Origin: Pseudomonadota bacterium
GTDB lineage: Bacteria > Pseudomonadota > Gammaproteobacteria > Steroidobacterales > MnTg04
Direction of reading: 5' to 3'
DNA: 64,000 nucleotides
NCBI GenBank assembly: GCA_022572885.1
Contig: JACZVC010000002.1
Location: forward strand, 63,135-127,134
Shown here: positions 12,814 through 33,915 of the stretch, piece after piece
Layout: every line of letters begins with the position of its first letter
Numbering within the stretch: position 1 is the stretch's first letter
Translations under genes and position numbers: made by a program
The notes under the pieces: model-generated
The model's database searches: none
The model's input: only the letters and a program-made list of their open reading frames with translations
Told to the model about the DNA's origin: nothing

Positions 12814-14307
12814 TCATCTGACTACCTTGATTATTTTTCCGGCAACCGGTTCGCCATCCGGGTAGGCCCTGTTCAGCAGGCGCAGATGATCCTCGGCATG
12901 CGAGCCGATAACCGAATTTTCCGCCAGACTCGCAAAGCTTGATTTCCCATCAGCTCTGCGCAGCGATATGACCGGTAGCCTGGCCGCACGAAAATCCGCG
13001 TCGTTCATTCGGTCGAAACTGAAAATGGCTTTGATAAATTCCGGATCTGCAGAGATGTTGTGCCGATCGTTTTTGCCCGCTCCGGCGAATATGAATCCGA
13101 CTCTTCTTTTTGGATCCGCAATAAATGCGTAGCGCACCGGCCGTTTACCGTATACCGACTCCGAATAATCTCCAATTGCGAGAAAAGACGGCAAACCATC
13201 GATCGTGATATTGCTCGAATCACGGATATTTCTGGCGCCCATGTTCTGACGAAGAATGGTTTTTGGCACGGCGCGTTTCGGAATTGGCAGTGCGCTGAAA
13301 TACAGCGCAGCATTGCCGTCCGGCGATGTCGCGATGACCTGGTCGTCGCGAATACCAATCGCCCAGCCCTCAGGGAACGTGACTTTTATACCGAGTCTCA
13401 GGTCGTAAAACTTGTGGGCCCGGATCACACGATTTCTGCGGGATTCGCCGAATACCAGACCGTTGATCCGGCTGAGATAGGCTTCCGCGTTAACCACGGC
13501 ATTCGGCCTGACCTGCAGTTTGTCAGCCGCCCCGACGACCTCCTGCAACCTGGTGTCATTGTCGGGGTGGGTAGCGAAAATTCCGTGGTACACCTGTGCT
13601 TTGCGCCCCTCCTGGCGTGCTCTTTCAACCTCGAACATCTCCTTTTGCTTCATCACGCGGAGCACATCAATGATGGATTCCGGGTCATAACCGGCTTTCG
13701 CCAGGTATTCCGCGCCCAATCCGTCAGCCTGCAGTTCGGCTTTCCGGCCAAAACCGCTCAACAAGGCGCCGCCGACGTAACTGGTCAGCACGCCCCCCGT
13801 TTGCAGCGGCGTAAGCATCCCGGCGACCGCAGAGAGCGCCTTGACAATCGATGATTTGCCGTGCTGCCTGACCGCGTGGCGTGCGGTGACATGGGCGATT
13901 TCATGGCCAACGATGGCGGCAAGTTCTGCCTCCGTATTCAGATAGGCCATGATTCCGCGGGTGATATAGATATACCCGCCAGGCGTGGCAAATGCGTTGA
14001 CCTGGTCATCGTCAAGAACGGTAAAACGATACTGTATGTTTGGCCGGTGACTGACTGCGGCCAGTTTCTGGCCGATGTCGTTGACATAGTTTTGCAATCT
14101 CTGATCCTGGTAAATGCCGTACTGCCGGATGATCTGCGGGTGTAGTCGGGCGCCGAGCTGTAGCTCGTCTTCTTCAGACATCAGGACGAAATCGGAACCA
14201 CCGGTCGGATTGGATGCGCAAGATGACAGTAACAGCCCCGCCATCGCTGCCAGCAACGCCAGGCAAGCAGGTTTTTGAAGGATTCCTGTTATCGGTTTTG
14301 TGTACAT
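12814..14307 (-). CDS. M48-family zinc metallopeptidase lipoprotein
   Basis: Lipobox LLLSSC. Intact HEIAHVTARH (HExxH) in an M48-like context. About 200 aa of uncharacterised C-terminal extension. Confidence 0.85.
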   Translation of the reverse strand: MYTKPITGILQKPACLALLAAMAGLLLSSCASNPTGGSDFVLMSEEDELQLGARLHPQIIRQYGIYQDQRLQNYVNDIGQKLAAVSHRPNIQYRFTVLDDDQVNAFATPGGYIYITRGIMAYLNTEAELAAIVGHEIAHVTARHAVRQHGKSSIVKALSAVAGMLTPLQTGGVLTSYVGGALLSGFGRKAELQADGLGAEYLAKAGYDPESIIDVLRVMKQKEMFEVERARQEGRKAQVYHGIFATHPDNDTRLQEVVGAADKLQVRPNAVVNAEAYLSRINGLVFGESRRNRVIRAHKFYDLRLGIKVTFPEGWAIGIRDDQVIATSPDGNAALYFSALPIPKRAVPKTILRQNMGARNIRDSSNITIDGLPSFLAIGDYSESVYGKRPVRYAFIADPKRRVGFIFAGAGKNDRHNISADPEFIKAIFSFDRMNDADFRAARLPVISLRRADGKSSFASLAENSVIGSHAEDHLRLLNRAYPDGEPVAGKIIKVVR

Positions 14308-14663
14308 GATGACTGTCTTCCTTTTTTGGACCGTCGCGGATTCGATCAGTTACCCGCGCCGATGGCCTGACCTTGAAACTATACCGAGGTGGTCCGCTCA
14401 TCAAGTGTGAGCCACTTTTGTTCCTGGCGCCGGTCAGATTGCAGGTGAGCCTGCGGTGCAATGGCGCATCACTTGCTTTCGAGGAGGCCGGTGGTGTAAA
14501 AAAGAGGCTGCCCCGGAGCGGTTAATCACTGATAAATGGCGCGTTGCAGCATAAGCGAGTCTGAACTTTTGCGTTGCTTGGCGGGTCATTTAATTATAGG
14601 AGAAATTGGCTCTGCCACTCATCAGCAGGAAAAGTCGATAGCGAGGTTAAGGTCGTGGAGAGA

Positions 14664-14969
14664 ATGTTGAAATTGGTGTCGGCGGCGACTATTTGTGCTG
14701 GTGCGGTGCTTGTTGCCGGCTGTGCCAGCAGCACGGTCCCGTTTGAACCGACACTCAAACAGGAAGTCGCCGCGCAAACCCATGTTGAAACCGAGACCCG
14801 CGTAGTCACGGGTTCGCGCATCAAGCGCACGATCGACCCCGACAACCCGAATAAGGATAGCTTAACCAATATTACGATTTTGGGTTCAGAAGAACTGAAG
14901 AATCATGGATCGATTGAAAGTGCGCTCAGGCCTTTGATTAACATGCGGGGCAATCGGGGCGGGGGATAA
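14664..14969 (+). CDS. Small lipoprotein (101 aa) with a TonB-box-like/plug-start-like segment
   Basis: Lipobox LVAGC. ETRVVTGSRIKR resembles the [DE]T[IL]VVT[AG] TonB box and the VVTGSRI variant of TonB-dependent receptors. NITILGSEELKNHGSIESALRPL resembles the beginning of a plug domain. The ORF starts at 14574, but the ATG at 14664 gives a proper signal peptide. Confidence 0.6.
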   Translation: MLKLVSAATICAGAVLVAGCASSTVPFEPTLKQEVAAQTHVETETRVVTGSRIKRTIDPDNPNKDSLTNITILGSEELKNHGSIESALRPLINMRGNRGGG

Positions 14970-15050
14970 ATCCTGTTGTCCACCTGTCTGCGGCAGGGGC
15001 GGTAAACATGAAGTCATCCGAGCTGGTCAGACCCCGATGTTGTCGGGCTG

Positions 15051-16730
15051 TTGTGTCTGCCTGCATTCTGTGAGGCACTCGGCTGTCAAGTGATTTTTGC
15101 AACTACAAAAGAACTTTTTTCCTTCGCGGCATCGGCGATGGTGCTTACCGCCGGTTTCCTCGTTTTGCCAGCGTATGCCCATGCCCAGGACGAACCCAGC
15201 GCTGAGGCAGCGGCCACGACGATCGCAGACTCGACCGATCAGGCGAACCCGGAAGTAACGGCGGCTGACTCGCGGGTTGAGACGGCGCCGGCGCAAGATC
15301 AGGCATCACCGGGTTCAGACGATGATACAGACGACCGCGTTGTTTCAGCAAAGCCACAGCCGGGCGATCGGTCCACCGCGAGCTTGATCGAGGAATCGCG
15401 GAAAATGTCTGTCGGCGAACGCTATCCGGAGGCATTGGATTACGCGTTGTTCGCGGTTGCGCAGGAAGACCGTTCAGAAGACCCGTATAACCCGGCGTTG
15501 ATCGAGCCGCTGATCAACCTGGCGGGCGCCCAGAAAAAATTGCAACTCGATCGGGAGGCGGCGCAATCCATCGAACGCGCCATAGACCTGATCGAGAGAG
15601 ACGGCGGTATTTATGATGCCCGGCTGGTAGCGGCGATTAACGACGCGGGCCGCCTGCTGCAAAAAGGCGGCGAACATGAGCGGGCGATCGGGTTGTTTCT
15701 GCGTTCTCAGCATATCAGTCATCGAATAGACGGAGTTTTCAGCCCTGACCAGGTGCCGGCTCTTGAGCAAATGACGCGCAGTTATATAATTACGAAGAAT
15801 CTGGACAAAGCGAATTCAGCGCAGAATTTTCGCTATATGGTGGATATTCATCGATTTGGACGAGTTTCGATCCTATTGGTGCCATCGATGGTCAAGCTGG
15901 CCAGGTTCAAGTCGAGTCTGAGGCTGTATGACGATGCCCGGAAGCTCTATGCCGAGGCGATACAGGTAACCGAAAAATCCCTCGGGGAAAAAGATCTTGC
16001 GCTGGTCGATTTGCTGCTGGGGCTGGCATCGGTAAGGCAGGATCACCACGAACTCCGCGAATTCCGGGAATACCGCAGGCAACAGGCCGAGCAACTCAGA
16101 CGCGAGGCCAGCATTGGCCATTATGATGCTCCGCCGCAAACCGCCGTTTTGTCCTCTGATACGGCAAGGAGACGCCAGGCTCCGGCCAGGGTACAAGGGG
16201 CTAGCCCGGGGCAGGCGCTGGCGGCACTCACCCGTGCGGTACAGATTGTGGATCATCACCAGGAAAAAGTGCCGTTCGCCGATCGGGTCGCAATATATGT
16301 CAACCTGGGCGACACCTATATGGTGTTAAGGAAAAAAAGAAACGGGATTACAACTTATCAGCAGGCGATGAAACTTATGGATACGGAGGGCAAGGCGCAG
16401 GATCTGACAGAGCAATATTTTGGCCGCCCCAGGCGTCTCCAATACAAGAAGCCACGCCCCGTGGCCAGCGCTGTCGGAAGATACGCCGATTACGACGGCA
16501 CCTTTGCCGAAGCGTCATTCGTGGTTCAGGCCGACGGATCCGTCGATGATATTGAAATGGTCGCGTCCAACGCACCTTTCCCCCTGCGCACCATGTTCAG
16601 AAAAGAAGTGCGCAGGTCCATCTACAGGCCACGATTTGTCGATGGCGAGCCGGTCGCCACCAAAGAGCATCTCAGGGAAGAGTTTTCCGGTACCGCGTTA
16701 CCGGCCAATAAAACGCCGACCGGTAACTGA
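15051..16730 (+). CDS. TPR-like + TonB C-terminal-domain protein, paralogue 1
   Basis: N-terminal signal/anchor (start ambiguous: 15051, GTG 15090 or ATG 15138), then an acidic linker and TPR-like helices. The C-terminus GTFAEASFVVQADGSVDDIEMVASNAPFPLRTMFRKEVRRSIYRPRFVDGEPV follows the TonB_C pattern (compare E. coli TonB GQVKVKFDVTPDGRVDNVQIL...FEREVKNAMRRWRYEPG). Confidence 0.75.
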   Translation: MCLPAFCEALGCQVIFATTKELFSFAASAMVLTAGFLVLPAYAHAQDEPSAEAAATTIADSTDQANPEVTAADSRVETAPAQDQASPGSDDDTDDRVVSAKPQPGDRSTASLIEESRKMSVGERYPEALDYALFAVAQEDRSEDPYNPALIEPLINLAGAQKKLQLDREAAQSIERAIDLIERDGGIYDARLVAAINDAGRLLQKGGEHERAIGLFLRSQHISHRIDGVFSPDQVPALEQMTRSYIITKNLDKANSAQNFRYMVDIHRFGRVSILLVPSMVKLARFKSSLRLYDDARKLYAEAIQVTEKSLGEKDLALVDLLLGLASVRQDHHELREFREYRRQQAEQLRREASIGHYDAPPQTAVLSSDTARRRQAPARVQGASPGQALAALTRAVQIVDHHQEKVPFADRVAIYVNLGDTYMVLRKKRNGITTYQQAMKLMDTEGKAQDLTEQYFGRPRRLQYKKPRPVASAVGRYADYDGTFAEASFVVQADGSVDDIEMVASNAPFPLRTMFRKEVRRSIYRPRFVDGEPVATKEHLREEFSGTALPANKTPTGN

Positions 16731-16741
16731 GCGGGTTCGCA

Positions 16742-18265
16742 ATGCCAATCAATCTTTGTCACCGGCCAGCCGCGACTGTGTTTTTGATCGCCGGCATGGT
16801 TTTTACTCAGCAAGTCGTCCGATCGGCGGAGTCAGACACCACTGATATCGACAGCGCCCCAACGCCGGTTGTCGAATTCCAGGTACTTTTCACGGCGGGC
16901 CGCTATGCGGATGCACTGGCGGTTGCCGCACGCGTGGCCGACCAGGCCTCGGATTACCAGTCCGCAACCCGGGCATCATTGGTTGAGCCGTTGATGAAGC
17001 TCGCCATGGTTCAGAAGCGCTCGGGCGATTATCTCATGGCGACTCGAGCGGCTGAGTCAGCCATCGAGTTGATCGAAAGAAATGGCGGGGTGTTCGACCC
17101 GGAACTGATCGAGCCACTCATTTTCCTGGCGCAGCTGGAGCAAGACAATGGGCATCACCCGGCGGCACTGGAAAGATTGAACCGGGCGCAACACATTTTG
17201 CATCGAGCGGAAGGCGTGATGAGCCATCTGCAGTTGCCGATACTGGCTTATATGACCAAAAGTTATACCGCGATGAAGCAAACAGAAAACACCAACACGA
17301 TGATCGAGCAGGCCTTTGCTATCAAGTCGCGCGATCTGGACCAGGATTCTATCGAATACGTACCGATTGTACTCGAACAGGCCGAAATCAGAGCCTTTAA
17401 CGGGCAGTTTCGTAAGGCAAGAGAACTGATTTACTTTGCCATGGAAATTCTCGACCAATCCTTAGCGGAAAATGATCCCGGTTTTGTCGATGCCTTGAAT
17501 GGTCTGGCGTTCGTTCGTTACCAGGAGCAGGCTAGCAGCAGTGCGAAACCCAAGCTGATCGCGTCCAGCCTGGTAGCCCCACGCATCCGCTTTCCAATCA
17601 TTGCCCGGACCGCTGAGTCAAACGATGACCGAAGACCTGAGCATACCGATGGCCGAAGACTTAAGCTAGCCGATATCCGGATCCCCACCCAATTCGAACG
17701 AGAAATCGTAACGGAACCTCCAATAAGATTACTGTCTCAAGGCCGTAGGGAAGGTACCCGGGCCCTGCAAAAAATGATCCACATCATGGAGCAGCATCGC
17801 GAGCGCTTTTCCGCAATCAAGCGTGCGGAGGCCCATATCTGGCTGGGAGACTGGTACATGATTATCCGCAAGCCCGACCTTGCGGACGACTCTTACCGTG
17901 CCGCCTGGCAAAGACTTGCCGATGAAGGCCAGGCCACGGACCTGTTGGCAAGCTACTTTGGCCAGCCAAAAAGATTAAAGTACCGCAAACCGGCGATACC
18001 GCGAAAAGGTGCGGGTATGTATGAAAATTATGACGGCAAATATGTCGAAGTCAGGTATTCGGTCGATGAAAACGGCAGGGTGCGCAAATTGAAGCTAGGC
18101 GATTCCAATTCGCCGGCAGCCATGAATACCAAAGTGCGATCCGCGGTCAAGCGCGCAATTTTCCGGCCAAGATATGAAGACGGACAGGCAGTGGCTACCG
18201 ATAATTTATTTTTCCGGGAAGAGTTTTCGGGCATGCTGTGGTGGCTGGCCGACGCGACCGACTAA
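16742..18265 (+). CDS. TPR-like + TonB C-terminal-domain protein, paralogue 2
   Basis: Same architecture as paralogue 1. The C-terminus is GKYVEVRYSVDENGRVRKLKLGDSNSPAAMNTKVRSAVKRAIFRPRYEDGQAV. Long collinear identity with paralogue 3 (e.g. AIELIERNGGVFDPELIEPLIFLAQLEQD / NRAQHILHR). Confidence 0.78.
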   Translation: MPINLCHRPAATVFLIAGMVFTQQVVRSAESDTTDIDSAPTPVVEFQVLFTAGRYADALAVAARVADQASDYQSATRASLVEPLMKLAMVQKRSGDYLMATRAAESAIELIERNGGVFDPELIEPLIFLAQLEQDNGHHPAALERLNRAQHILHRAEGVMSHLQLPILAYMTKSYTAMKQTENTNTMIEQAFAIKSRDLDQDSIEYVPIVLEQAEIRAFNGQFRKARELIYFAMEILDQSLAENDPGFVDALNGLAFVRYQEQASSSAKPKLIASSLVAPRIRFPIIARTAESNDDRRPEHTDGRRLKLADIRIPTQFEREIVTEPPIRLLSQGRREGTRALQKMIHIMEQHRERFSAIKRAEAHIWLGDWYMIIRKPDLADDSYRAAWQRLADEGQATDLLASYFGQPKRLKYRKPAIPRKGAGMYENYDGKYVEVRYSVDENGRVRKLKLGDSNSPAAMNTKVRSAVKRAIFRPRYEDGQAVATDNLFFREEFSGMLWWLADATD

Positions 18266-19749
18266 TGAATCGGGGCAGTACGAGAATCCGGTACTTTGAG
18301 CGACCGGCTGCTGCCATACTCTTGATCATCGTCGCCCTGGTTCCCCATCAGACCGTCCGGTCGGCGGAATCGGGCACGGGCAATTCAGACAACGACCCGG
18401 CAGCCGCCCAGGAATTCCAGGGGCTTGCCACATCGAACCAGTCCTCGGATGAAATGGGGTTCGCTTCCCGCATTCTCGGTCAAGGCTTTGAATACGGCGC
18501 CGATAGCGGGGAATTACTCATTGAATCGTTGATGAAAGACGCGATGGTTCGGCGACAAGCGGGCGAAAATCTTCGCGCAGAGCGGGCCGCCGGGTTGGCG
18601 ATTGAACTCATCGAAAGAGACGGTGGCGTGTTCGACCCGGCCCTGGTGGAGCCGCTCGTTTTTCTGGCGCAGTTGCAACAAGACGGTGGCGACCATCCGG
18701 CGGCAATCGAGCGATTGAACCGGGCGCAACATATTTTGCATCGGACTGACGGAGTGATGACCAGTCTGCAATTGCCGATCCTGGATCTGATGAACAAAAG
18801 CTTTGCCGCGATGGAGCAAGTTGACGAGGTTCGCATGATTACCGAGCTGAACTATGCCATCAATGTGCGTCATCTGGACAAGAGTTCTCTCGAGTTTGTG
18901 CCATTTATCCTCGACCAGGCCGAATACAAAGCCAGTATCTGGCAGTTTCGAGTGGCAAGAGAACTGTATTCGGATGCGCTGGGAATTCTTGAGCAATCCT
19001 TGTCGAAAAACGATCCGGGTTTTGTCGATGTCTTGAATGGCCTCGCGTCTGTTCGCTACCAGGAGCAGTTGTACGGCGTGCCCGGTTCCCGGCTGATTGC
19101 GCGTCGGACGGCATCGACGATTCAGACCTCGAACAAAGAGATGCAGAGTACCCTGCATATCGGAAAGATCCTTGGGCGAGAATGGGGCCCGAAACTTTCG
19201 CCTAAACGCGGTCGCAAGGAAGGCACCCGGACGCTGCAGACGGTGATTGGCATCATGGAAGCACATCCCGAGCGCTTTCCCGCGGTTCGGCGTGCGCAGG
19301 CCCATCTCCGGTTGGGAGACTGGTATATGGTGATTCGCAAGCCCCGTCTCGCAGATGGCGCATACCGCAGCGCCTGGCAATTATTTGCCGATGAAGCAGA
19401 TGCTGCGAAATTGCTGGCAAGCAACTTTGGCCAACCGAAAAAATTGAAATACTCCAAGCCGTCCTTGCCGCGCTCCGGTCCGGGCAGGTACGAAAATTAC
19501 GACCACCGATATGTCGTAGTCAGCTACTCGGTAAACGAAGAAGGCGCAGTGCGCAACCTGAGGTTTGTCGAGTCAAATGTTCCCGCGGCGATGAACCTGA
19601 AAATGCGAGACGCCGTCAAGCGGGCCATTTACCGGCCACGTTACATAAACGCACAAGCGGTGGTTACCGACGATTGTTATTTACGGCAAGAATTCTCCGG
19701 CACTGCATACGAAGTGCATCAGCGAGCCTCCGGGGAGCCTGTGCAGTAG
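18265..19749 (+). CDS. TPR-like + TonB C-terminal-domain protein, paralogue 3
   Basis: The ATG at 18265 overlaps the stop of paralogue 2 (TAATG). Shared blocks include AIELIERDGGVFDPALVEPLVFLAQLQQD, NRAQHILHR and a TonB_C-like C-terminus (HRYVVVSYSVNEEGAVRNLRFVESN...RDAVKRAIYRPRY). Confidence 0.78.
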   Translation: MNRGSTRIRYFERPAAAILLIIVALVPHQTVRSAESGTGNSDNDPAAAQEFQGLATSNQSSDEMGFASRILGQGFEYGADSGELLIESLMKDAMVRRQAGENLRAERAAGLAIELIERDGGVFDPALVEPLVFLAQLQQDGGDHPAAIERLNRAQHILHRTDGVMTSLQLPILDLMNKSFAAMEQVDEVRMITELNYAINVRHLDKSSLEFVPFILDQAEYKASIWQFRVARELYSDALGILEQSLSKNDPGFVDVLNGLASVRYQEQLYGVPGSRLIARRTASTIQTSNKEMQSTLHIGKILGREWGPKLSPKRGRKEGTRTLQTVIGIMEAHPERFPAVRRAQAHLRLGDWYMVIRKPRLADGAYRSAWQLFADEADAAKLLASNFGQPKKLKYSKPSLPRSGPGRYENYDHRYVVVSYSVNEEGAVRNLRFVESNVPAAMNLKMRDAVKRAIYRPRYINAQAVVTDDCYLRQEFSGTAYEVHQRASGEPVQ

Positions 19750-19759
19750 GAATACCCGT

Positions 19760-20512
19760 TTACCCGCCTTCGGTCAGAAAGGATTGGATCTGCTTCGCCA
19801 AGCCGTTGCAGGCGACCTTGGCGGTTCGTGCTATCAGCGGGATCGGAATGACCAGCGCCGGCATGTAGGACGTACCCTTGGCGTCCGCGCTGATGATGCC
19901 AGCCACTTGCTGTCTCTTCAGATCCCAGATCGATGCCTCATAGCTCGATTCTTTTTCGCGCCAGGTAATCCCCAGGCAGCCTCCGCCGGCTGCGCCAAAT
20001 GCGCAGGTCATCGTCCCGCCCTGGTCCAGTGTTTCGGTGCTGCCATCGATCCAGATGACATAGCGCACCCCGATGTCGTTGATACGCTCCAGAACCCCGG
20101 GTTTGGCGAACAGGGCGGGCAATTCATAGGGGTTGTTTGGCGCCAGCCGTGGCTCGAAGTAGGGAAACATCAGATCGATGAATTTCGCCTGTTCGGTTAT
20201 ACGCAAGGGGTTCTTGCTCGATTGCAGTTTTTTCGAGACGCATTCGGTAAAAGACTTTTCGGTTTCCTGCGCCGTATGTGTTCGCCGGGTCAAAACGACT
20301 ACTGATTCAAATTCCTGGATGGCCTCGGCGGGTTGGTTATCGGCAACGTGCCGAAATTCTTCGATCCGGGAACTCACGCAGGCGCCCAGCATGGCAACGC
20401 ATGCGCACAGTCCCGCCAAAATGACAGGCCGGGTATGGAAAGTTTTTATTGCGTATTTACTCAGAATTTGCCTCTCCCCGGCTTTGCGCAATGGCACTCG
20501 ATGCCCTGTCAA
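19760..20512 (-). CDS. Hypothetical lipoprotein (family not recognised)
   Basis: Lipobox AMLGAC. The start is uncertain (TTG 20512, GTG 20497 or TTG 20491), and every option overlaps the upstream gene. No motif recognised. Confidence 0.55.
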   Translation of the reverse strand: MTGHRVPLRKAGERQILSKYAIKTFHTRPVILAGLCACVAMLGACVSSRIEEFRHVADNQPAEAIQEFESVVVLTRRTHTAQETEKSFTECVSKKLQSSKNPLRITEQAKFIDLMFPYFEPRLAPNNPYELPALFAKPGVLERINDIGVRYVIWIDGSTETLDQGGTMTCAFGAAGGGCLGITWREKESSYEASIWDLKRQQVAGIISADAKGTSYMPALVIPIPLIARTAKVACNGLAKQIQSFLTEGG

Positions 20513-21122
20513 TATACCTGGTTACACCGGGTTGCCGTGGAAAATCAAGGGTCAGGCTTGCCGCCGCATCGCGTAACGCGACCATCAGCGCCTCTTTGAC
20601 CGATTCTTTCTTGTGCAGCGGGTACTCGGGCGCTTTGCCGTACGCGTTGATGATCCAGTCAGCGACCAGGTCTCCCTCGGGCGAAAAAACGTCGATCTGG
20701 TACTTGAACGAAATCGAGAAAAATTCCAGGGGCGTTGCCGAAGGATCGAGCAAACCGAAATCGACAAACGAAGGCACGACGATCAGGTCGACATTCTCAA
20801 CCGTTGCGCCAGCGCTCGGTTTGTCCTCCAGTACAACGACCTGGTCGCTTAAATTGACAAAAACCTGGCTGAACATTTGCACGCTGGCTGTGCCCAGGTG
20901 CACTTTCCAGTCGTTTCTCTGGTAGAGCACTTCTTCGGGTGTGTAGTTTTCGAATTCCGGCGCAAAATACAAGCCGACGCTCAGCGGGACCCTTTCGCCC
21001 AGCGGCGCCGGAAAACTGCCGCTGACCTCGATGATATTGACGCAGGCGGCCAGGAATGCTGCTGAGAGGGCGAGAAAACCAAGCCGGAAAAAGGCTGAAG
21101 AAAATAAATTCTTTAATTTCAT
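20457..21122 (-). CDS. Hypothetical lipoprotein (family not recognised)
   Basis: The ATG at 21122 gives MKLKNLFSSAFFRLGFLALSAAFLAAC (lipobox LAAC). The ORF part upstream of it is not signal-like. Confidence 0.6.
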   Translation of the reverse strand: MKLKNLFSSAFFRLGFLALSAAFLAACVNIIEVSGSFPAPLGERVPLSVGLYFAPEFENYTPEEVLYQRNDWKVHLGTASVQMFSQVFVNLSDQVVVLEDKPSAGATVENVDLIVVPSFVDFGLLDPSATPLEFFSISFKYQIDVFSPEGDLVADWIINAYGKAPEYPLHKKESVKEALMVALRDAAASLTLDFPRQPGVTRYIDRASSAIAQSRGEANSE

Positions 21123-21363
21123 AAAGTTACTTGCTTCATTTAAAGTAAACTCAAACGCAGCCCCGCGCGACGCCCTTTTCCCTCGGTCTTCGTTCAAATA
21201 CGAACCGCAGATAGCTGAATAGTTCCGCCCGTTGTCGTAGAACTTTAACCGCCAATCCAGTCTAATCAAGGGAGTGTAGCTTACTGGCCAGCAAAGCGTT
21301 CTTGTGGCCAGGGGAAGCGGGCGAGTATCCTTGGGGCCGCGGGCAATCGCGGAAATGGTTGAT

Positions 21364-21382
21364 TTGGCTTTTTGCAAGCCAA
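21364..21382. promoter_or_regulatory. Inverted repeat immediately upstream of the first gene of the 21396-33915 operon
   Basis: TTGGCTT-tttgc-AAGCCAA is a perfect 7-bp inverted repeat ending 14 nt before the ATG at 21396. It could be an operator or a 5'-UTR hairpin. Function is unknown. Confidence 0.3.
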
Positions 21383-21395
21383 GGGCAGGCTCACT

Positions 21396-23252
21396 ATGAA
21401 TAGCAAACGCTTAAGCAGAATCTGGGTACCGGTAGTTGCCGGTTTAATATTGACTGGCTGCGCAACGACGCAGCAACAATCTCAATCGCAAAGTCAGAGT
21501 CAGTCAAAGTCGCAAAGCCAGAGTCAGGCGCCGTCGCAGCCTCAGCTGCCATCGCCGAGCCAGAGTCAGGCTCAATCGCCATCGCAGCCTCAGTTGCCGT
21601 CGCCGAGCCAGAGTCAGGCTCAATCGCCATCGCAGCCTCAGCTGCCGTCGCCGAGCCAGAGTCAGGCTCAGGCGCAAAGTCAGGCAAGCTCATCGAGCGA
21701 GGCCTCCGCCAGTTCAACTTCCTCCCAGGGCGGGGAAAGTTCGGCGCAGGCAGATGCAAGCTACAGTGATGCCAGCGAGTCTGCAGCCAGCAGCGCTGCA
21801 TCCGATGCGGCCGATTCAGCGGGCGATGAAACGGAGGCACAGTCCGGCGACGAAGCGATGCGGGTAGCGGAGCAGGCGATCGAGGCCGCGAACGAGGCAC
21901 TGGAAGAGGCCTCTGTTGCAGTCGCCGAAGCGGCCGCGCAGTCCGCTGATGCAGCCCGGGTTGCGGCAGGTCAACCCGGCGCCACCGGGGAAGATTCGAC
22001 GACCGAGGACGCAGCGAGCGGCGAGGAGAATTTACAGGCGGCCGCAGAGGCAACGGAGGGCGCTCGCCAGGCTTTGCAGGGCCTGGTAGACATGATCGCC
22101 GCATCGCAAATGGCGGCGGGCGGGATCGGCGGCGCGACCGGCGCCGACAGCGACCAGATGGATGATGCCAGCGGCAGTCTGCCCGGGGATATTGGCAGTC
22201 CTGAATACCAGGAGGCATTAAAGAAAGCAGTTGGCGAGGCGCTGAGCGAAGCCGCCCGGCAAATAGAGAAAGCCAGCGGTGCACTGGCCGAGGCGGCCCG
22301 GCAATCCCAGGGCGATGAGTGGGCCGATTCCGAGCCGAGATCGGCTGCCGCGGGCAGCGAACAATCCGGTCAGCGTGCAGAATCGCAGGGTGCGAGCAAT
22401 GATGTCTCCGGCGATGAGTTGGCAGTCAGGCTGGCCGAAATGCAGGGACTGGCGCAGGTCATGAACGCAATCAACGAAGGCATGCAGGCGGCAGAGCTGG
22501 GAGGCCTTTCAGCGGTAAACCGCCAGGCCTCCACGCGGCTGATTCTTGAAGGCGATGTGACGGCCAGCCCGGGCAGTATTCTTTTGCCGGGTGGAATAGA
22601 GCTCCCGCTTGGCCTGGGTTTGCCCGGGGTGCTGGGTAGGCCGATTGGCGACGGCGGCGATATGCCCGGTGCGGTCGTAGTCGCCGGCGGGGGCTTCGAA
22701 TCCGGCAACAATCAGCGGGTGTTTGACGATGGCCAGGGCTCTTCAGGCAGCGGTAGCGGAGCGGTTGTGATTATTGCCGGCGCGCAATCGAGCAGTGACC
22801 GGGTCGCTGTGCTGGACACCAGGTTGTCAGGGTCGTTGACTATTTTCGATGGCATAATTCTGGCCAGCCAGGGATCCAAGATGGGATCGTCCGTTGGCGC
22901 CGGGGGTGGTTTTGGTGAACCGGGCCAGGAAACCGGTATTGGCGACGCGAGCGGGCAACCGGGTTTCGAGGGTGAGGGGCCGATGATTGCCGGTTCGGGG
23001 CAGACCGCTGGCGATGCGGCCGAGGGCCGCGACCAGACCAGCCTGGCAAGGGGCAAGGATACCGGACCCGGTGGCCGGCAAAGCGGCGGCGATGCCCTGC
23101 TGAACCCGCCGCCGGAGGGTGTTCCCGATGGCAGCGATGACGATATTGTCGCCAGGCAGTTGCGCGAGGCGGCGGAAAATGAGAGCGATCCTGAACTCAG
23201 GGACAAACTTTGGGATGAGTATCTTGCATACAAGAAGGCGACCGGGCAGTAA
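21396..23252 (+). CDS. Large low-complexity acidic lipoprotein (SQ/PSQ repeats, Ala/Glu/Ser-rich, Gly-rich middle)
   Basis: MNSKRLSRIWVPVVAGLILTGC (lipobox) is followed by (QS)n and three PSQPQLPSPSQSQAQS units, then long A/E/S/D-rich and G-rich tracts. The more ordered C-terminus is DDDIVARQLREAAENESDPELRDKLWDEYLAYKK. Confidence 0.65.
   Translation: MNSKRLSRIWVPVVAGLILTGCATTQQQSQSQSQSQSKSQSQSQAPSQPQLPSPSQSQAQSPSQPQLPSPSQSQAQSPSQPQLPSPSQSQAQAQSQASSSSEASASSTSSQGGESSAQADASYSDASESAASSAASDAADSAGDETEAQSGDEAMRVAEQAIEAANEALEEASVAVAEAAAQSADAARVAAGQPGATGEDSTTEDAASGEENLQAAAEATEGARQALQGLVDMIAASQMAAGGIGGATGADSDQMDDASGSLPGDIGSPEYQEALKKAVGEALSEAARQIEKASGALAEAARQSQGDEWADSEPRSAAAGSEQSGQRAESQGASNDVSGDELAVRLAEMQGLAQVMNAINEGMQAAELGGLSAVNRQASTRLILEGDVTASPGSILLPGGIELPLGLGLPGVLGRPIGDGGDMPGAVVVAGGGFESGNNQRVFDDGQGSSGSGSGAVVIIAGAQSSSDRVAVLDTRLSGSLTIFDGIILASQGSKMGSSVGAGGGFGEPGQETGIGDASGQPGFEGEGPMIAGSGQTAGDAAEGRDQTSLARGKDTGPGGRQSGGDALLNPPPEGVPDGSDDDIVARQLREAAENESDPELRDKLWDEYLAYKKATGQ
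21531..21674 (+). repeat. Three tandem near-identical 48-bp (16-codon) coding repeats
   Basis: Copies at 21531-21578, 21579-21626 and 21627-21674 differ by a few synonymous or near-synonymous bases. They encode PSQPQLPSPSQSQAQS. An imperfect CAR-AGY (QS) hexanucleotide tract at 21478-21530 precedes them. Confidence 0.9.
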
Positions 23253-24478
23253 TGACCCCCAGGAAATTCAATATCGCCATTGTTCTGTCGATGCTGGCTT
23301 TTGCGGGCGGCTGTGTTCAGCACCAAATCATCAAGGCGAACCCGACGAGGCTCCAGACAGCCAGCCAGGACATTCCTGACTCGACGGTCCTTGATGTTGG
23401 GGTGGCGATTTTTGATCCGGGTGTTGCGGATGATCTTGGGGTACGCGAGGAGCAAGAGGAAAGCCGCAACATTTTCCCTGAAGTCCGCAAGGCGGAGGCT
23501 CGCTACATGGCATTCCAGCTGAAGCGGGTGCTGGAAAATTCCGGTAGCTGGGGCGCGGTCAGGGTTTTGCCAAAGGCTTCAAAGGGCACCGATTTGATGA
23601 TTTTCGGTAAAATACTCTCGTCCGACGGGGAAGTGCTCAAACTCAGGGTTACCGCCGTCGATGCGACCGGGCACCGGTGGCTGGATAAAAAATACGAGGA
23701 TCGGGCGAGCAAATATGCCTACAAGGACTACGTTCCGTCTCGAGGCGACCCGTTTCTCGATCTTTATAATTCGGTCGCCAACGATTTGCTGGCCATCCAC
23801 CAGCAGATGACGGTCGGCCAGCTTGAAAATATTCGTCGCGTCGCCGAGCTCAGGTTCGCCGGCGATCTGTCGGCCGAAGTTTTTGGCGATTATCTTGTGG
23901 AGCGTAAAGGATTATACGAGGTTCGCCGATTGCCATCGGTGGACGACCCCATGGTCGCCAGGATGCTGCGCATCCGCCAGCGCGAATACATGTACATCGA
24001 TACACTGGACGAGTATTACGCGGACTTGTACCGGCAGATGGATCAGCCGTACGCGGATTGGAGAAAATTCACCTTCGAAGAAGCGCAGGCGTTGCGCGAG
24101 CTCAAAGCTGCCGCCAGAAACCGGAAGCTCGCTGGCCTGGCGATGATAGTCGGCGGGGTTGTCGTGGACAGTAAATCGAATACGCAGGCGGCCAGGATAG
24201 CGGGCGCCAGTGGCGTGATCGGGGGAATCGCCGTTTTCAAAAGCGGCATGGACAGGGGCAAGGAAGCGAAACTCCATTTTGAAGCGATGAAGGAGCTGGG
24301 CGAGTCCATGGAAGCGCAGGTCGCGCCGATGGTGGTCGAGGTCGAAGGCCAGACGATCGAACTGACCGGGAGCGTGGATGCGCAATTCGATGAGTGGAGA
24401 GTCATCCTCCGGGATATCTATGCCGCAGAAACCGGTATTATTGTGGGAGAACTGGATACAGCCCTCGATCCGGGCTAG
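23252..24478 (+). CDS. Hypothetical lipoprotein with a Gly/Ala-rich hydrophobic segment near the C-terminus
   Basis: Lipobox AFAGGC. The ATG overlaps the preceding stop by 1 nt. No family recognised. Hydrophobic stretch LAGLAMIVGGVVV...GASGVIGGIAVF. Confidence 0.6.
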   Translation: MTPRKFNIAIVLSMLAFAGGCVQHQIIKANPTRLQTASQDIPDSTVLDVGVAIFDPGVADDLGVREEQEESRNIFPEVRKAEARYMAFQLKRVLENSGSWGAVRVLPKASKGTDLMIFGKILSSDGEVLKLRVTAVDATGHRWLDKKYEDRASKYAYKDYVPSRGDPFLDLYNSVANDLLAIHQQMTVGQLENIRRVAELRFAGDLSAEVFGDYLVERKGLYEVRRLPSVDDPMVARMLRIRQREYMYIDTLDEYYADLYRQMDQPYADWRKFTFEEAQALRELKAAARNRKLAGLAMIVGGVVVDSKSNTQAARIAGASGVIGGIAVFKSGMDRGKEAKLHFEAMKELGESMEAQVAPMVVEVEGQTIELTGSVDAQFDEWRVILRDIYAAETGIIVGELDTALDPG

Positions 24479-24493: not shown

Positions 24494-26869
24494 ATGAGGG
24501 AATATCAAAAGGGGCAGCACTTATCTGGCCGTTTCACCCTGATCACTCTCTTGGGGCAGGGGGGCATGGGTGAAGTCTGGCTGGCCAAAGACGACCACCT
24601 TGCGCGTGATGTAGCGCTGAAAATCCTGAGCCCCGCATTGGCCGCAAACCCGGCCATGGTTGAACTGTTGCGCGACGAATGTCGCCTGACCCGACAAATG
24701 GTGCATCCCAACATCGTTCGGGTTCATGAATTCCACAGCGATGGCGACAGCCACTTTATCTCCATGGAATATGTCGAGGGAGACAGCCTGGAAGCGCTGG
24801 CTGGCCGCCATCATGAAGTCTGGCTGCCGGTGTTGCTACCGGCGCTGGATGCGCTCGAATACGCACACCAGGCTGGCATGGTGCACCGCGATATCAAGCT
24901 CAGCAACGTGTTGTACACCGCCAACGGGGAGGTCAGGCTATGCGACTTTGGCATCGGCGGGATTATCGGCAAGCAAAGCGATGCATTTCCTGGCGGGTCG
25001 CCGTTTTCGGCCAGCCCCCAGCAGCTTGATGGTCAGCCAGGTTCGATCGGCGACGATATTTACGCGGTTGGCGCGATGATCTACGCCTTGATGTCCGGGA
25101 AGCCTCCCTTTTATGCGGACCCGGACCAGAAAAAGATTGCCGGCCAGGTGCCGCCGCCGCCGAAGACGGATTACCCACCGCCGGACGGGCTCGTGGAGTT
25201 GGTGATGCGCATCCTGGCCAAGGACCCACTGGAGCGGCCCGATTCGATCGGTGAGGTGCGGGAACTGCTTGCCGACATCACTGGCGTCAGTTCGGCCACC
25301 ACGCGGCCACCCGGTGAGTTGGCCAGCACCGGCAGCGGTACCGGCAAAATCGTAGCGATTCGACGGCAGCACAATGTGCCCGGAAGCGACCGGCCAGGAT
25401 CAGGCCAGGAAGATCTGCCGAGCAGATCCTGGCTGCCCGGTCTGGCGATGGCCCTGCTGTTGCTCATTGCTGCGGTGGTGTTCCTCTACCTGCCCAGCCA
25501 GGTTGCGAAGCGCGAGCCGGTGCCCGGAGTTGAAATTCAATGGCCGACCGATGAGATCGCCGAGGAGCAGCCCCCGGCTGCAGTTGCCGATACTCCATCC
25601 TCTGCCGATAAGCGGCTCGCGCCTTACGAACAGGCGCAGGCGACCCGCGACCGCGAGGAAGCGGAACTCCTGGTGGCGCGGCTGCTGCGCCGGCAGATTG
25701 CCCTGGAAGACCAGGCGGTTCATTTGTGGGCCGGCGATGAATTCAATGCGGCGGTTGAGCTGGTTCGGAGCGCCGACAGCCTGTTCCACAAGGATGACTA
25801 TGCCAGCGCGCTGAACGCCTATCAAACCGCGCTGGATGAAATCGACCGTCTGTCAGGGCAGGTTGACGGCGTATTGAATGCTGCGCTCGAGGACGGCGGA
25901 CAGGCGTTGCTCGATGGCGATCCGGAGACAGCGCAACTGAATTTTGAACTGGCCGCGGCGATCGATCCGGACAACCTCGATGCTTCACAGGGTCTGAGCC
26001 GAGCGGCCACTGTCGAACAGGTCCTGGCGCTGATGGCGGTGGCCGAGGCAAAGGCCGCGGATGGCGATTTGTTGGGCGCGAAGCAGAGCTACCAGGAATT
26101 GCTGGCCATCGACGCCGAATGGCAGCCGGCAAAGACAGCGTTGGGGCAACTGAATCGCAGCCTGGCGATGCAAAATTACAGCAGGCAGATGTCCGCCGGC
26201 TTCGCCAGCCTGGCCGACAACAGACTGCATAGAGCCCGGGACGCATTTCGGTCGGCTTTGCGAATGAGACCGGGTTCGGAAGACGCCCAGGATGGCCTTT
26301 CCCAGGTCGAGGCGGCGATAAAACTGGCCGAAATTTCACGCTTGCGGACGCAAGCGGAAGCGTACGCCGTTGTTGAGCAATGGCCGCTGGCGCTCAACGA
26401 TTATCAATCCGCTTTAAAGCTCGATCCGAATCTTGTTTTTGCCCGCGATGGAGAAGCTCGCGCACAGAAAATGGTTCGTATCGACAAGGAATTCGCGCTC
26501 TACGTGGTGCAACCCGATCGGCTGGGAGAGGACAACGTTTACCAGGCGGCCTTGGGATTCCTCGAACAGGCTCGTTTGCTGGCCGACCCGGGACCACGTT
26601 TGCAGGCCCAGTTGCTCCAACTCCAGGTTCAGCTCCAGGTTGCACGAATCCCCGTCAGGGTAGACCTGGTCTCGGATCAAATGACGGAAGTATTCATAAA
26701 CCGGATTGGCAAGATCGGCACATTTGCCAAGCACGCGGTGCGACTGGTACCGGGTAAGTACACGCTGATCGGTACACGCGACGGTTATCGTGATGTTCGG
26801 CAGCAACTGGTAGTCCAGCCGGGCATCTCGCCGGAGCCGGTACTGATCCGTTGCGAGGAAAAGATTTGA
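24494..26869 (+). CDS. Hanks-type Ser/Thr protein kinase - TM - periplasmic TPR-like region - C-terminal PEGA-like beta domain
   Basis: GQGGMGEVWLA, VALKIL (catalytic Lys), VHRDIKLSNVL and DFGIG motifs. TM is LPGLAMALLLLIAAVVFLYL. TPR-like helices follow. The C-terminus VRLVPGKYTLIGTRDGYRDVRQQLVV is PEGA-like. Confidence 0.88.
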   Translation: MREYQKGQHLSGRFTLITLLGQGGMGEVWLAKDDHLARDVALKILSPALAANPAMVELLRDECRLTRQMVHPNIVRVHEFHSDGDSHFISMEYVEGDSLEALAGRHHEVWLPVLLPALDALEYAHQAGMVHRDIKLSNVLYTANGEVRLCDFGIGGIIGKQSDAFPGGSPFSASPQQLDGQPGSIGDDIYAVGAMIYALMSGKPPFYADPDQKKIAGQVPPPPKTDYPPPDGLVELVMRILAKDPLERPDSIGEVRELLADITGVSSATTRPPGELASTGSGTGKIVAIRRQHNVPGSDRPGSGQEDLPSRSWLPGLAMALLLLIAAVVFLYLPSQVAKREPVPGVEIQWPTDEIAEEQPPAAVADTPSSADKRLAPYEQAQATRDREEAELLVARLLRRQIALEDQAVHLWAGDEFNAAVELVRSADSLFHKDDYASALNAYQTALDEIDRLSGQVDGVLNAALEDGGQALLDGDPETAQLNFELAAAIDPDNLDASQGLSRAATVEQVLALMAVAEAKAADGDLLGAKQSYQELLAIDAEWQPAKTALGQLNRSLAMQNYSRQMSAGFASLADNRLHRARDAFRSALRMRPGSEDAQDGLSQVEAAIKLAEISRLRTQAEAYAVVEQWPLALNDYQSALKLDPNLVFARDGEARAQKMVRIDKEFALYVVQPDRLGEDNVYQAALGFLEQARLLADPGPRLQAQLLQLQVQLQVARIPVRVDLVSDQMTEVFINRIGKIGTFAKHAVRLVPGKYTLIGTRDGYRDVRQQLVVQPGISPEPVLIRCEEKI

Positions 26870-29346: not shown

Positions 29347-29625
29347 ATGAATAAAAAGGTCTGGCTGTTAACCTTGGGGGCGCTCGTATCGGCACAGTTT
29401 CTTTTTGCGCCGCGGCTTGCCGCGCAGGATTATGATGCCGAGCCACCGCCTGAGCAGGAGGCGCGCGAAGAAACGGTCCCGGCCGATCCTGGCGGGGAAT
29501 CGTCGGCTGAGGAGGATTCGAAAATCAGGCAGGATTCTGCGCAAACGATTGACGATCTGGACAGTTTTGTGCCCAGCGTAGAGATTTCCAGCGACTTGTC
29601 CATTTCCTATCCAGTAGATATCTGA
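29347..29625 (+). CDS. Small secreted acidic protein (92 aa)
   Basis: Signal peptide MNKKVWLLTLGALVSAQFLFAPRLAAQ, then an acidic mature part ending FVPSVEISSDLSISYPVDI. Sits 15 nt after the previous gene and 17 nt before the MotA/ExbB-like gene. No family recognised. Confidence 0.55.
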   Translation: MNKKVWLLTLGALVSAQFLFAPRLAAQDYDAEPPPEQEAREETVPADPGGESSAEEDSKIRQDSAQTIDDLDSFVPSVEISSDLSISYPVDI

Positions 29626-29642: not shown

Positions 29643-30440
29643 ATGACACGACGATGGCCAGTTGAATTTCTTTACCAGATATTTTCCCTGATTGTCGCGG
29701 TGATCGTCGTGCATGCGACCTATGTATCGATGATCAGACCGCAAGCCGATGCCATATTGCTTGAGCGGGAAATCCTGATGGAGCGGGACGCGCTCTACGT
29801 TCCGCCACGATCCCTGTACGTCATCATCAGGGATTTCGAGCAGGAAACCTGTTTTATCCTGATGCTTTGGGCATTCGCCTTGATGGGCTACAAGGCCGTG
29901 GCAACCAGCAAGGAGCGCAGTTTTGTGTTCGAGAAACTGATCGATGTCGGCGAAGGCATGAGCATCCTGCCGGAAGATACCCGCGAATACGCCAGATCGC
30001 TGGAGGCCATGGGTCCTGAACAGCAGCGCCGGCTGTTGCCGCGCGCGTTGCTGACGGCCCTGCACCGGTTCCGCTCGACCAAAAGCATTCAGGATGTATC
30101 CACGGCGGTAAAAAATATCTGTGATACGGAGTATGAGCGGATGGACACCGAGTTATCGATGGTGCGCTATCTCGCCTGGGCAATCCCATCGGTCGGTTTT
30201 ATCGGCACCGTGCGTGGCATCGGGCAGGCGCTGGGTCGAGCCAACGAGGCCGTGGCTGGCGATATCAGCGGCGTGACCCAGTCACTGGGCGTCGCCTTTA
30301 ATTCGACTTTTGTCGCCCTCGTTATCAGCATCGTCCTGATGTTTTTGTTGCATCAGTTGCAAGAAGCGCAAGAACGGCTGGTTCTCGACTCACAGAACTA
30401 TGTCGATGAGCAACTGATACGGTACCTGCAGGTTCGATAA
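29643..30440 (+). CDS. MotA/TolQ/ExbB-family proton-channel protein
   Basis: Has several predicted TM helices. The signature PSVGFIGTVRGIGQAL matches TolQ/ExbB GL(F/L)GTVWGI. The following GVAFNSTFVALVISIVLMFL matches the final TM of the family. Confidence 0.8.
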   Translation: MTRRWPVEFLYQIFSLIVAVIVVHATYVSMIRPQADAILLEREILMERDALYVPPRSLYVIIRDFEQETCFILMLWAFALMGYKAVATSKERSFVFEKLIDVGEGMSILPEDTREYARSLEAMGPEQQRRLLPRALLTALHRFRSTKSIQDVSTAVKNICDTEYERMDTELSMVRYLAWAIPSVGFIGTVRGIGQALGRANEAVAGDISGVTQSLGVAFNSTFVALVISIVLMFLLHQLQEAQERLVLDSQNYVDEQLIRYLQVR

Positions 30441-31804: not shown

Positions 31805-31805
31805 A

Positions 31806-32903: not shown

Positions 32904-32913
32904 GAGGGCTGGT

Positions 32914-33915
32914 ATGCGCAAGCGCAAATACACAGAAGGAATCAGCATCGCTTTTCTCGATGTCATCGCTTGCGGATTTGGCGCGGTAATCCTGATGCTG
33001 ATCCTGACCAAGGTTTTTGAGCCGATCATCATTGAAGAAACCGCGATAGAACTGGTGGGCGTACTCGAGGAAAAGGAACGCCGGCTTTACGATATTCGCG
33101 GCGAGACCAGCATCCTCAATCGCGAGATGATTTCGCGCGAGGACCAGTTGTCGGTCGCGCGGCAACGCCTTGCACGCCTACAGGCGGAACTGTCGGAAAT
33201 CCAGGGGCGGTTTGTCGCATCCAGCCAGGATGCCGAGATAAGCAATATTATCGAGGGCAAGCTGGCCGCTGCGCGGCAGTCCCTGACCGCGGAGATGAGG
33301 CGCCTGCTGGTTCAATACAACGAAATAAAAGACAACAACGTGATCGGCGGGATTCCGATCGATAGCGAATACATTATTTTCATTATTGACACATCCGGGA
33401 GCATGTATAACTACGCTTGGCCCCTGATGCTGGAAAAGGTACGCGAAACGCTGGAAGTTTATCCCCAGGTCAAGGGCATACAGGTCATGAACGACATGGG
33501 GCAGTTCATGTTCAGCCGCTATGCGGGCAAATGGATTCCGGACACGCCGGGGCGGCGGCGCGCGATCATCGAGCGGCTGCGCACCTGGAATGCGTTTAGC
33601 AACTCGAGTCCTGTCGAAGGCATCACCAAGGCAATCGCAACCTTCTATGCGCCCGACAAGAAAATCAGCCTGTATGTGTTGGGCGACGAGTTTACCGGTC
33701 GTTCGATCGACGCGGTACTAAAGACCATCCGCGTGATCAATCGGCGGGGCCGCGATGGAAAAAGGCTGGTTCGAATCCATGCGATCGGTTTCCCGGTTCA
33801 ATTCATCAGGCCGGCGCATTTGCAAACCACGGGCATAAGGTTTGCTACGTTGATGCGCCTGATGTGCGAACAAAATGGAGGCACATTTGTGGGCCTGCCC
33901 GATCACCGGACTTGA
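32914..33915 (+). CDS. ExbD/TolR-like N-terminal TM segment - coiled coil - vWA domain protein (2 of 2)
   Basis: The N-terminus is MRKRKYTEGISIAFLDVIACGFGAVILMLILT (same FLDV motif). A coiled-coil region follows, then a vWA domain with YIIFIIDTSGSMYN (DxSxS). RBS aggaggg lies 5 nt upstream. Confidence 0.72.
   Translation: MRKRKYTEGISIAFLDVIACGFGAVILMLILTKVFEPIIIEETAIELVGVLEEKERRLYDIRGETSILNREMISREDQLSVARQRLARLQAELSEIQGRFVASSQDAEISNIIEGKLAAARQSLTAEMRRLLVQYNEIKDNNVIGGIPIDSEYIIFIIDTSGSMYNYAWPLMLEKVRETLEVYPQVKGIQVMNDMGQFMFSRYAGKWIPDTPGRRRAIIERLRTWNAFSNSSPVEGITKAIATFYAPDKKISLYVLGDEFTGRSIDAVLKTIRVINRRGRDGKRLVRIHAIGFPVQFIRPAHLQTTGIRFATLMRLMCEQNGGTFVGLPDHRT

Follow-up and report, generated by a model that had tools for sequence, protein, structure and literature searches.

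What does a TonB-type C-terminal domain do at the end of tetratricopeptide repeat (TPR) proteins that carry neither the anchor nor the rod of TonB? The question is raised by three consecutive genes of a Pseudomonadota bacterium (assembly GCA_022572885.1, contig JACZVC010000002.1), found at 15051-19749 of the 64,000-nucleotide stretch of DNA that was analysed (the window, to which the coordinates refer unless a comparison locus is named). An initial annotation of this DNA had described them as tandem paralogues ending in a TonB_C-like domain and had noticed genes resembling those of a proton-driven motor further downstream. The identity of the C-terminal domain, the relationship of the three proteins to TonB and their link to that motor are considered here in turn.

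Three tandem genes with a common architecture

The open reading frames (ORFs) called at 15051-16730, 16742-18265 and 18238-19749, all on the forward strand, contain three TPR-TonB_C paralogues that will be referred to as P1 (15092-16730), P2 (16742-18265) and P3 (18265-19749). P1 is of the ancestral type, and its most likely start is the GTG at 15092, since the signal-peptide-like N-terminus then ends in AHA-QDE (hyphens mark putative cleavage sites) and parallels that of the orthologue P0055 (MISATKKEF...VHA-QDE). The spacing between P1 and P2 is 11 nt, one less than the 12 nt previously given, and the P2-P3 junction reads TAATG, the ATG of P3 (18265) sharing one base with the stop codon of P2, as the annotated 1-nt overlap had implied. 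The shared architecture proposed for these co-oriented genes (signal, TPR, linker and TonB_C) was borne out: TPR_12 is significant in P1, P2 and P3 (E = 6e-14, 3e-12 and 5e-7) and the TonB_C assignment is supported by the further tests presented below. P2 is the copy for which TPR_12, the alignment, an AlphaFold2 (AF2) model and a TonB_C match of the isolated domain are all available.

Identity is about 52% between P2 and P3, and the long identical blocks that had been reported between them are found in the alignment. P1 is indeed the more diverged copy, with about 30% identity to either. Between paralogues, TonB_C is the most conserved region, and the N-terminal extension and the linker are the least conserved. 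A 24-nt unit is repeated 2.2 times in the P2 linker (17623-17674), inside a disordered stretch; because of this repeat and of the variable linker length among orthologues, the linker apparently evolves by short duplications. One homologue, P0006, combines a P3-type signal peptide with a P2-type body, which points to recombination or gene conversion among the tandem copies, unless it is an assembly chimera. A promoter and terminator scan gave counts no higher than in shuffled sequence, and no operon claim is drawn from it.

The C-terminal domain

The full-length proteins score below the curated TonB_C cut-off (PF03544, 24.6 bits), with 13.8 bits for P1, 24.2 for P2 and 14.0 for P3; TIGR01352 behaves alike. 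When the C-terminus of P2 is isolated, it reaches 26.5 bits and passes the PF03544 cut-off. The same family matches 14 of the 16 family C-termini that were scanned alone, P1 and P3 passing only at the level of the family profile. A C-terminal profile built from 16 proteins, including sequences from Halieaceae, Bowmanella and Porticoccus, has TonB C-terminal domains as all of its 12 best matches in the PDB (E = 5e-8 to 3e-5), and a profile of 27 family members also recovers TonB C-terminal-domain structures (E ~1e-5) through its positions 384-470.

The predicted structures agree with these searches. The AF2 model of P2 consists of TPR helices (41-268), a disordered segment (267-330), a second set of TPR helices, TPR-B (328-406), and a beta-beta-alpha-beta TonB_C fold (410-496). 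Since the Foldseek list obtained with the full-length model was dominated by TPR matches, the last 148 residues of P2 were modelled alone. Strands span residues 74-82, 88-96 and 118-136 of this fragment and a helix spans residues 100-112, the pLDDT of the domain being ~70-87. The top 17 Foldseek matches of the fragment in the PDB are TonB or FusB C-terminal domains (TM-score 0.6-0.76), followed by TolA domain III. The structures matched include 1u07, 2gsk, 6i97, 2k9k and 2grx, and the nearest are TonB domains solved in complex with FoxA, BtuB and FhuA. In an alignment of 61 members, the invariant residues include the G of R-x-x-H-I-x-H-R-x-x-G-V, the D of LGDWY, the P of FGxP and the RP of FRPR. 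By Pfam, by profile search against the PDB and by predicted fold, the C-terminal domain is a true TonB_C homologue, and the profile evidence thus upholds the original assignment.

Relationship to TonB

The rest of these proteins does not resemble TonB. The TPR part of the 27-member family profile matches the TPR structures of the kinesin light chains (KLC) KLC1/2 (E = 5e-17), and the full P2 model retrieves KLC TPR domains with Foldseek (E = 1e-7); the KLC entries matched include several that were solved with cargo peptides. The N-terminal hydrophobic stretches, read by eye, span about 12 residues and have neither a His nor an SHLS pattern; putative cleavage sites follow them (AHA-QD or VRS-AE, also by eye). 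A signal-like N-terminus was recognized in the same way in 104 of 112 full-length relatives. P1-P3 are thus probably exported and soluble in the periplasm, to judge from their sequences. Of the "secreted/anchored" nature first attributed to them, the exported character is retained and the anchored one is not.

An anchor with the conserved His/SHLS for contact with ExbB was not seen by eye in P1-P3, and neither was a Pro-rich spacer able to span the periplasm, as the initial annotation had already stated. Proline makes up 4.5-5.3% of P1-P3, no segment of 40 residues contains more than 5 Pro, and TPR helices and a 60-residue disordered linker stand in the place of the rod. Having neither a TonB-type anchor nor a Pro-rich rod, P1-P3 are not TonB proteins. 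Multiple TonB paralogues are common in Gammaproteobacteria, and the homology of the C-terminal domain to TonB_C could be taken to mean that P1-P3 are ordinary TonB paralogues, energising transporters through an ExbB-ExbD pair encoded elsewhere. This explanation is scarcely credible: besides the missing anchor and spacer and the mostly signal-peptide-like N-termini of the relatives, it leaves aside a TPR region of 350 residues that TonB does not have, and the gene is fixed in a cluster in which neither an ExbD-family protein nor a transporter gene was found.

Association with a conserved gene cluster

A word-indexed search returned 33 close relatives, all uncultured Gammaproteobacteria plus one Porticoccus protein (23% identity), whose gene is directly upstream of a compact cluster ending in MotA_ExbB and three homologues of the window genes at 30449-33915. 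The last of these window genes encodes the second of two vWA proteins (vWA2, 32914-33915). A scan with vWA2, restricted to one genome per species, found 145 relatives; 80 loci were retained for comparison (Halieaceae, Pseudohongiellaceae, Bowmanella, Cellvibrionales, Chromatiales, Woeseiaceae and Desulfobacterales). When the window proteins are mapped onto these loci, they form one colinear, single-strand cluster of 13 genes. Its first half encodes TPR-TonB_C, an acidic low-complexity lipoprotein (LC), the lipoprotein g408, a transmembrane TPR protein with or without a kinase domain (TM-TPR), a PEGA/FGE-sulfatase protein and a small secreted protein. Its second half encodes a TolQ-like channel, an FHA protein, vWA1, vWA2, the lipoproteins m2 and m1, and an M48 peptidase.

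Because the loci extend only 10 kb upstream, the TPR-TonB_C gene is usually cut by the locus edge. Among the 49 loci with an LC match, 22 have too little upstream sequence to judge and 27 are informative. The family C-terminal domain ends the ORF directly upstream of LC in 25 of the latter (E = 1e-26 to 4e-4). In the reverse direction, the full module is present in all five informative loci fetched via family members, namely those of Porticoccus (L005) and Bowmanella sp. Y26 (L087) and three others (L089, L090 and L091) picked down the ranking of an exhaustive search. On both counts the co-occurrence test is positive, which confirms the association between family and module. P1-P3 therefore very probably belong to the machine encoded by this cluster.

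The weakest version of the linkage would be that generic periplasmic TPR proteins happen to sit beside a motor cluster without functional link. Two loci do possess the module without an adjacent copy. Nevertheless, the position and orientation of the gene persist in Halieaceae, Pseudohongiellaceae, Bowmanella, Porticoccus and uncultured lineages at ~22% identity, and rearrangements of the cluster have not separated the gene from it, so that mere neighbourhood is very unlikely.

The family itself is large. A profile of the C-terminal part, comprising TonB_C and the TPR pair before it, was used for an exhaustive HMMER search. It matched 1019 representative clusters (50% identity) with E <= 1e-10, a number that rises to 3366 with E <= 1e-3. 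Among the 150 best matches, most are 400-520 residues long and have the domain at their extreme C-terminus; the top matches have the same architecture. In the source annotation, family members are only called "tetratricopeptide repeat protein".

The motor of the cluster

The initial annotation had placed a MotA/ExbB-like gene and two ExbD-like genes about 10 kb downstream of the array. The first part of this statement stands: the gene at 29643-30440 (forward strand) encodes a proton channel subunit of the TolQ/ExbB/MotA family (Pfam MotA_ExbB, E = 4e-15), whose best NCBIfam match is TolQ, below cut-off, and whose GVAFNSTF motif is kept in 66 of 67 orthologues. The ExbD Pfam family, by contrast, has no match in the proteins encoded at 31806-32903 and 32914-33915 (both forward), which are vWA proteins and resemble ExbD in their pore helix only. 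In both, an ExbD/TolR-like N-terminal helix, FLDV(M/I)(S/A)CGFGAVIL, precedes a coiled coil, and the vWA domain that follows contains the MIDAS motif DxSxS. In vWA1 the Asp-bearing pore helix reads FLDVMSCGFGAVIL and the MIDAS motif DASAS; vWA2 is a second, different copy, with the helix FLDVIACGFGAVIL and the MIDAS motif DTSGS. Among the orthologous vWA ORFs, 64 of 79 and 62 of 81 have the SFLD(V/I) helix with its Asp, the remainder being cut or start-shifted, and DxSxS is present in all of them.

In the window and in the 80 loci, the TolQ-like gene adjoins a heterologous vWA pair without a TolR, ExbD or MotB gene. Such an arrangement has been described: section 8 and Fig. 4c-d of PMC12204202 (Mol Biol Evol 2025) report TolQ-like genes tightly linked to heterologous vWA pairs, whose proteins bear a TolR/ExbD-like trans-pore helix (TPH) with a conserved Asp, with no TolR/ExbD gene. 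The module of the window is a member of this TPH-vWA class, by its sequence features, and insertion of the helix into the pore is predicted. The searched text of PMC12204202 assigns no function to the class, and neither a partner with TonB_C or TPR nor a kinase or sulfatase-like protein is named there in connection with it. Literature searches surfaced only that article and a model of the Myxococcus Agl-Glt machinery. The extended 13-gene cluster, with a TPR-TonB_C gene as its first member, is newly described in the present analysis.

The composition of this motor also bears on a more static explanation of P1-P3. TolR, ExbD and MotB normally supply a periplasmic domain that binds the cell wall, and contact of the TonB C-terminal domain with peptidoglycan has been reported. 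A TPR-TonB_C protein could then be a tether that fastens the motor to the cell wall or to the outer membrane without transmitting force, since the protein looks exported and is conserved at the start of the cluster, and since the motor is devoid of an ExbD/TolR/MotB periplasmic domain, vWA proteins replacing these subunits in the part of PMC12204202 cited above. Yet the peptidoglycan-binding families OmpA_C, LysM and SPOR were not detected in domain scans of P1-P3, and the closest structures are TonB domains in complex with the TonB boxes of transporters (6i97, 2gsk and 2grx). A purely static role thus appears doubtful.

Expansion and rearrangement in the window lineage

The number of TPR-TonB_C genes varies among genomes. 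There is one in L005, L087, L089 and L091, two in L090, three in the window and four in L002, a relative on a 179-kb contig. In a neighbour-joining tree, P1, P2 and P3 each group with their own L002 orthologue (71, 77 and 74% identity, respectively), and the fourth L002 copy forms a sister to the P2 group. Identity between orthologues (71-77%) contrasts with that between paralogues (30-52%). As each paralogue groups with its own orthologue, the duplications predate the split of the window and L002 lineages, the copies having been retained since. The comparison of the three copies in identity and phylogeny therefore shows them to be old paralogues. Most genomes have one copy of this gene, and the array is an old expansion specific to the lineage.

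L089 has the same hflKC-purA neighbourhood; its only copy belongs to the P1 type (E = 7e-152), and a small-lipoprotein gene is absent. In the window, such a gene precedes the array at 14655-14969 (forward); it encodes a 104-aa protein with the lipobox LVAGC and the invariant segment R(E/V)VTGSR(I/L)KRT(I/V)DP(D/N)NPN. Because L089 has the P1-type gene alone, P2, P3 and the small lipoprotein look like joint later gains. A search of 5.8 billion proteins gave no more than 18 homologues of the small lipoprotein, all of 87-106 aa, and it occurs only where TPR-TonB_C has expanded to three or four copies.

The array also lies in an altered setting. In the comparison loci (L028-L086), the m2-m1-M48 block is downstream of the cluster and co-oriented with it in most genomes; in the window lineage the block is inverted and upstream, and the array stands between m1 and M48 (12814-21377). 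The M48 gene (12814-14307, reverse strand) encodes a metallopeptidase lipoprotein (Peptidase_M48, E = 1e-35; lipobox LLSSC), whose orthologue adjoins the cluster in most loci, usually as the last gene and co-oriented with the rest. TPR domains serve as adaptors in BepA, and the TPR-TonB_C proteins might likewise be adaptors or chaperones for the M48 lipoprotein in a BepA-like quality control of the envelope, handing lipoproteins or outer-membrane proteins over to it, with paralogues that differ in their clients. The peptidase is a constant member of the cluster and adjoins the array in the window lineage, with only the small lipoprotein gene between them. In most genomes, however, it is found at the opposite end of the cluster, ~12 kb away from TPR-TonB_C, which is itself directly upstream of LC, and no role would be left for the TonB_C domain or for the motor. 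An M48 adaptor is accordingly unlikely.

The region had been regarded as an accessory block, a description that has to be abandoned. A mobile or accessory island was rejected, as GC content is even across the region and the cluster is found beside hflKC-purA in related genomes; for the same reasons it is better described as a resident, syntenic cluster. A tRNA-Leu (CAG) at 36926-37009 (reverse strand), the sole Rfam/ARAGORN match in the window, is located ~3 kb past the end of the cluster, with no indication that it marks an island boundary.

The other genes of the cluster

Two conserved lipoproteins of no known family, both on the reverse strand, follow the array. They are m1 (19760-20497, lipobox LGAC) and m2 (20457-21377, lipobox LAAC), the latter with a probable start ATG at 21122. 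In most loci the m1 orthologue comes after m2, and both lie downstream of vWA2. All the remaining genes are on the forward strand.

The acidic low-complexity lipoprotein LC (21372-23252) has the lipobox LTGC and a conserved C-terminal helix, DDDIVARQLREAAE; its 40 C-terminal residues are conserved as far as Porticoccus. A 48-nt unit repeated three times at 95% identity (21529-21670) encodes PSQPQLPSPSQSQAQS repeats. In most genomes this gene lies directly downstream of the TPR-TonB_C gene, which it often overlaps. It is followed by g408 (23252-24478), another conserved lipoprotein of no known family, with the lipobox FAGGC and a Gly-rich hydrophobic C-terminal segment.

The product of the next gene (24494-26869) joins a Ser/Thr kinase domain (Pkinase, E = 5.5e-38) to TPRs. 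The kinase domain is present on this TM-TPR protein in the window, L002, L089 and L090. It is missing from the orthologues of many other genomes; those of Porticoccus (L005, 13141-14637), Bowmanella (L087, 13623-15110) and L091 (13527-15068) have TPR only, with 495-513 aa. An anti-phage defence function was considered and rejected: PADLOC gave generic kinase matches for the Ser/Thr kinase only, and nine other proteins of the cluster were unmatched. The gene at 26851-29331 encodes a membrane protein with four PEGA domains (E = 2e-58) and a C-terminal FGE-sulfatase domain (E = 8e-45). It is GldK/PorK-like, PorK/GldK being its best NCBIfam match (E = 1.6e-31, 110 bits against a cut-off of 350 bits), and this is an unexpected parallel between two envelope machines driven by MotA-family motors.

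The small secreted acidic protein sm92 (29347-29625, 92 aa) has a near-invariant C-terminus, ...SxDLxVS(F/Y)PVDI-COOH, more fully ...P(S/T)E(E/Q)ISxDLxVS(F/Y)PVDI, and an ORF ending in (F/Y/M)Px(D/N)I is found at that junction in 65 of 65 loci. From this conservation, sm92 looks like a peptide ligand or a sorting tag. A coupling of sm92 with TPR-TonB_C, in the sense of joint absence, was rejected, as these 65 loci include two without adjacent TPR-TonB_C. Between the channel and vWA1, the gene at 30449-31804 encodes a cytoplasmic protein with a C-terminal FHA domain (E = 1.7e-10); outside of this domain, nothing significant was found in the PDB.

A possible mechanism

The features assembled above may be explained if the TPR-TonB_C protein were a free periplasmic head, that is, a TonB split off from its membrane anchor. 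The engine of the machine is the TolQ-like proton channel, with the two different vWA proteins as its pore-helix partners; the remaining parts are four or five lipoproteins, the PEGA/GldK-like protein, the small secreted protein, the M48 peptidase, the FHA protein and, in some genomes, the Ser/Thr kinase for regulation. The C-terminal domains of TonB and TolA grip the TonB box and TolB, respectively, by adding a strand to a sheet, and KLC-type TPR grooves bind short peptides. By analogy, TonB_C would use strand addition to bind a beta-strand motif in a lipoprotein or in a partner in the outer membrane. Another component, for instance LC or the MIDAS head of a vWA protein, would hold the TPR groove or the disordered linker, and motor force or movement would reach the outer envelope via the TPR-TonB_C protein. 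Candidate ligands are the lipoproteins with disordered tethers, the acidic LC, the two MIDAS vWA heads and the C-terminus of sm92 (...VSFPVDI). The presence of three or four paralogues suggests several alternative or cooperating heads, as is the case with multiple TonB paralogues. We would give this adaptor or head function a probability of roughly 0.55.

Several observations weigh against it. The force-transmission step is an analogy, and the gene products of the cluster do not include a beta-barrel protein with a TonB box. The small lipoprotein could have provided a stand-alone TonB box, its VTGSRIKR segment presumably resembling the N-terminus of TonB-dependent transporters, but the searches lent no support to this assumption: neither phmmer against the PDB nor a motif search of the fetched loci gave a transporter match, the search of 5.8 billion proteins gave the 18 same-sized homologues only, and tblastn against plasmids found no transporter. 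The cleavage of P1-P3 was judged by eye only, and they may instead keep an uncleaved signal anchor. Finally, the two exceptional loci, L046 (1-1655) and L060 (1-1770), carry the module with unrelated genes upstream of LC and no adjacent family member; either the TPR-TonB_C protein can be dispensed with in some genomes, or its gene is located at another site in these two. Both loci are also without the FHA gene and one of them is deltaproteobacterial; they may represent a reduced variant of the system.

A more specific version of the head function can be put forward tentatively. In such a "split TonB", a TolQ-like pentamer would turn or pull the vWA heterodimer, whose MIDAS heads would catch the free TPR-TonB_C protein while the latter grips a strand of an outer-envelope lipoprotein or of the small secreted peptide. 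If that were true, force would pass through a non-covalent and exchangeable head rather than through one anchored polypeptide. Force transduction across the envelope would then have a third architecture, next to those of TonB and TolA, and the paralogues of the window lineage, with their private lipoprotein, would be alternative heads and targets. In any event, a motor that was noticed as an orphan in 2025 gains a candidate contact with the outer envelope and a list of parts of 13 genes. Bowmanella species offer cultivable hosts for genetics, and with the tandem paralogues nature provides an experiment on the specificity for partners.

Comparison with known systems

The Ton system (ExbB-ExbD-TonB) shares with P1-P3 the PF03544-homologous C-terminal domain and the link to a channel of the MotA/ExbB/TolQ family. 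TonB has an anchor with SHLS/His and a Pro-rich rod, whereas P1-P3 have a signal-peptide-like N-terminus and ~350 residues of TPR; unlike in the Ton system, ExbD is missing from the motor of the cluster, and so is a gene for a TonB-dependent transporter from the cluster itself.

The Agl-Glt machinery of Myxococcus (PMC11761067) has similar parts, namely a TolQ/R-type motor, domains resembling the TonB C-terminal domain (CTD), periplasmic TPR scaffolds, vWA and FHA domains, and lipoproteins. In the model proposed there, the TonB-CTD-like GltG and GltJ dock on the TPR protein GltD, and CglB is a vWA adhesin. The TonB-CTD proteins of Agl-Glt are nevertheless anchored in the inner membrane and its TPR proteins (GltC/D/E) are separate, whereas here both are fused in one probably soluble protein; the vWA domain of Agl-Glt belongs to a surface adhesin and here to the pore-helix subunits.

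Tol-Pal also combines a TolQ-type motor, a periplasmic TPR protein (CpoB) and lipoprotein partners, and TolA domain III has the same fold as TonB_C. However, TolA is anchored in the inner membrane, CpoB is devoid of TonB_C, and the cluster of the window has no TolB, Pal or TolR homologue. Likewise, in PorK/GldK-PorL/GldL-PorM/GldM a protein with the FGE-sulfatase fold is encoded beside a MotA-family motor; this type IX secretion and gliding apparatus differs in being found in Bacteroidota, the cluster of the window being gammaproteobacterial and without PorM/N or other type IX secretion genes.

To our knowledge, TonB and TolA are the two known routes by which energy passes from the inner to the outer membrane, and both are single polypeptides anchored beside their motor. 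The cluster described here differs from both: its TonB-type head is carried by a probably soluble, exported TPR protein and is fixed in a widespread cluster with a vWA-based, TolQ-like motor.

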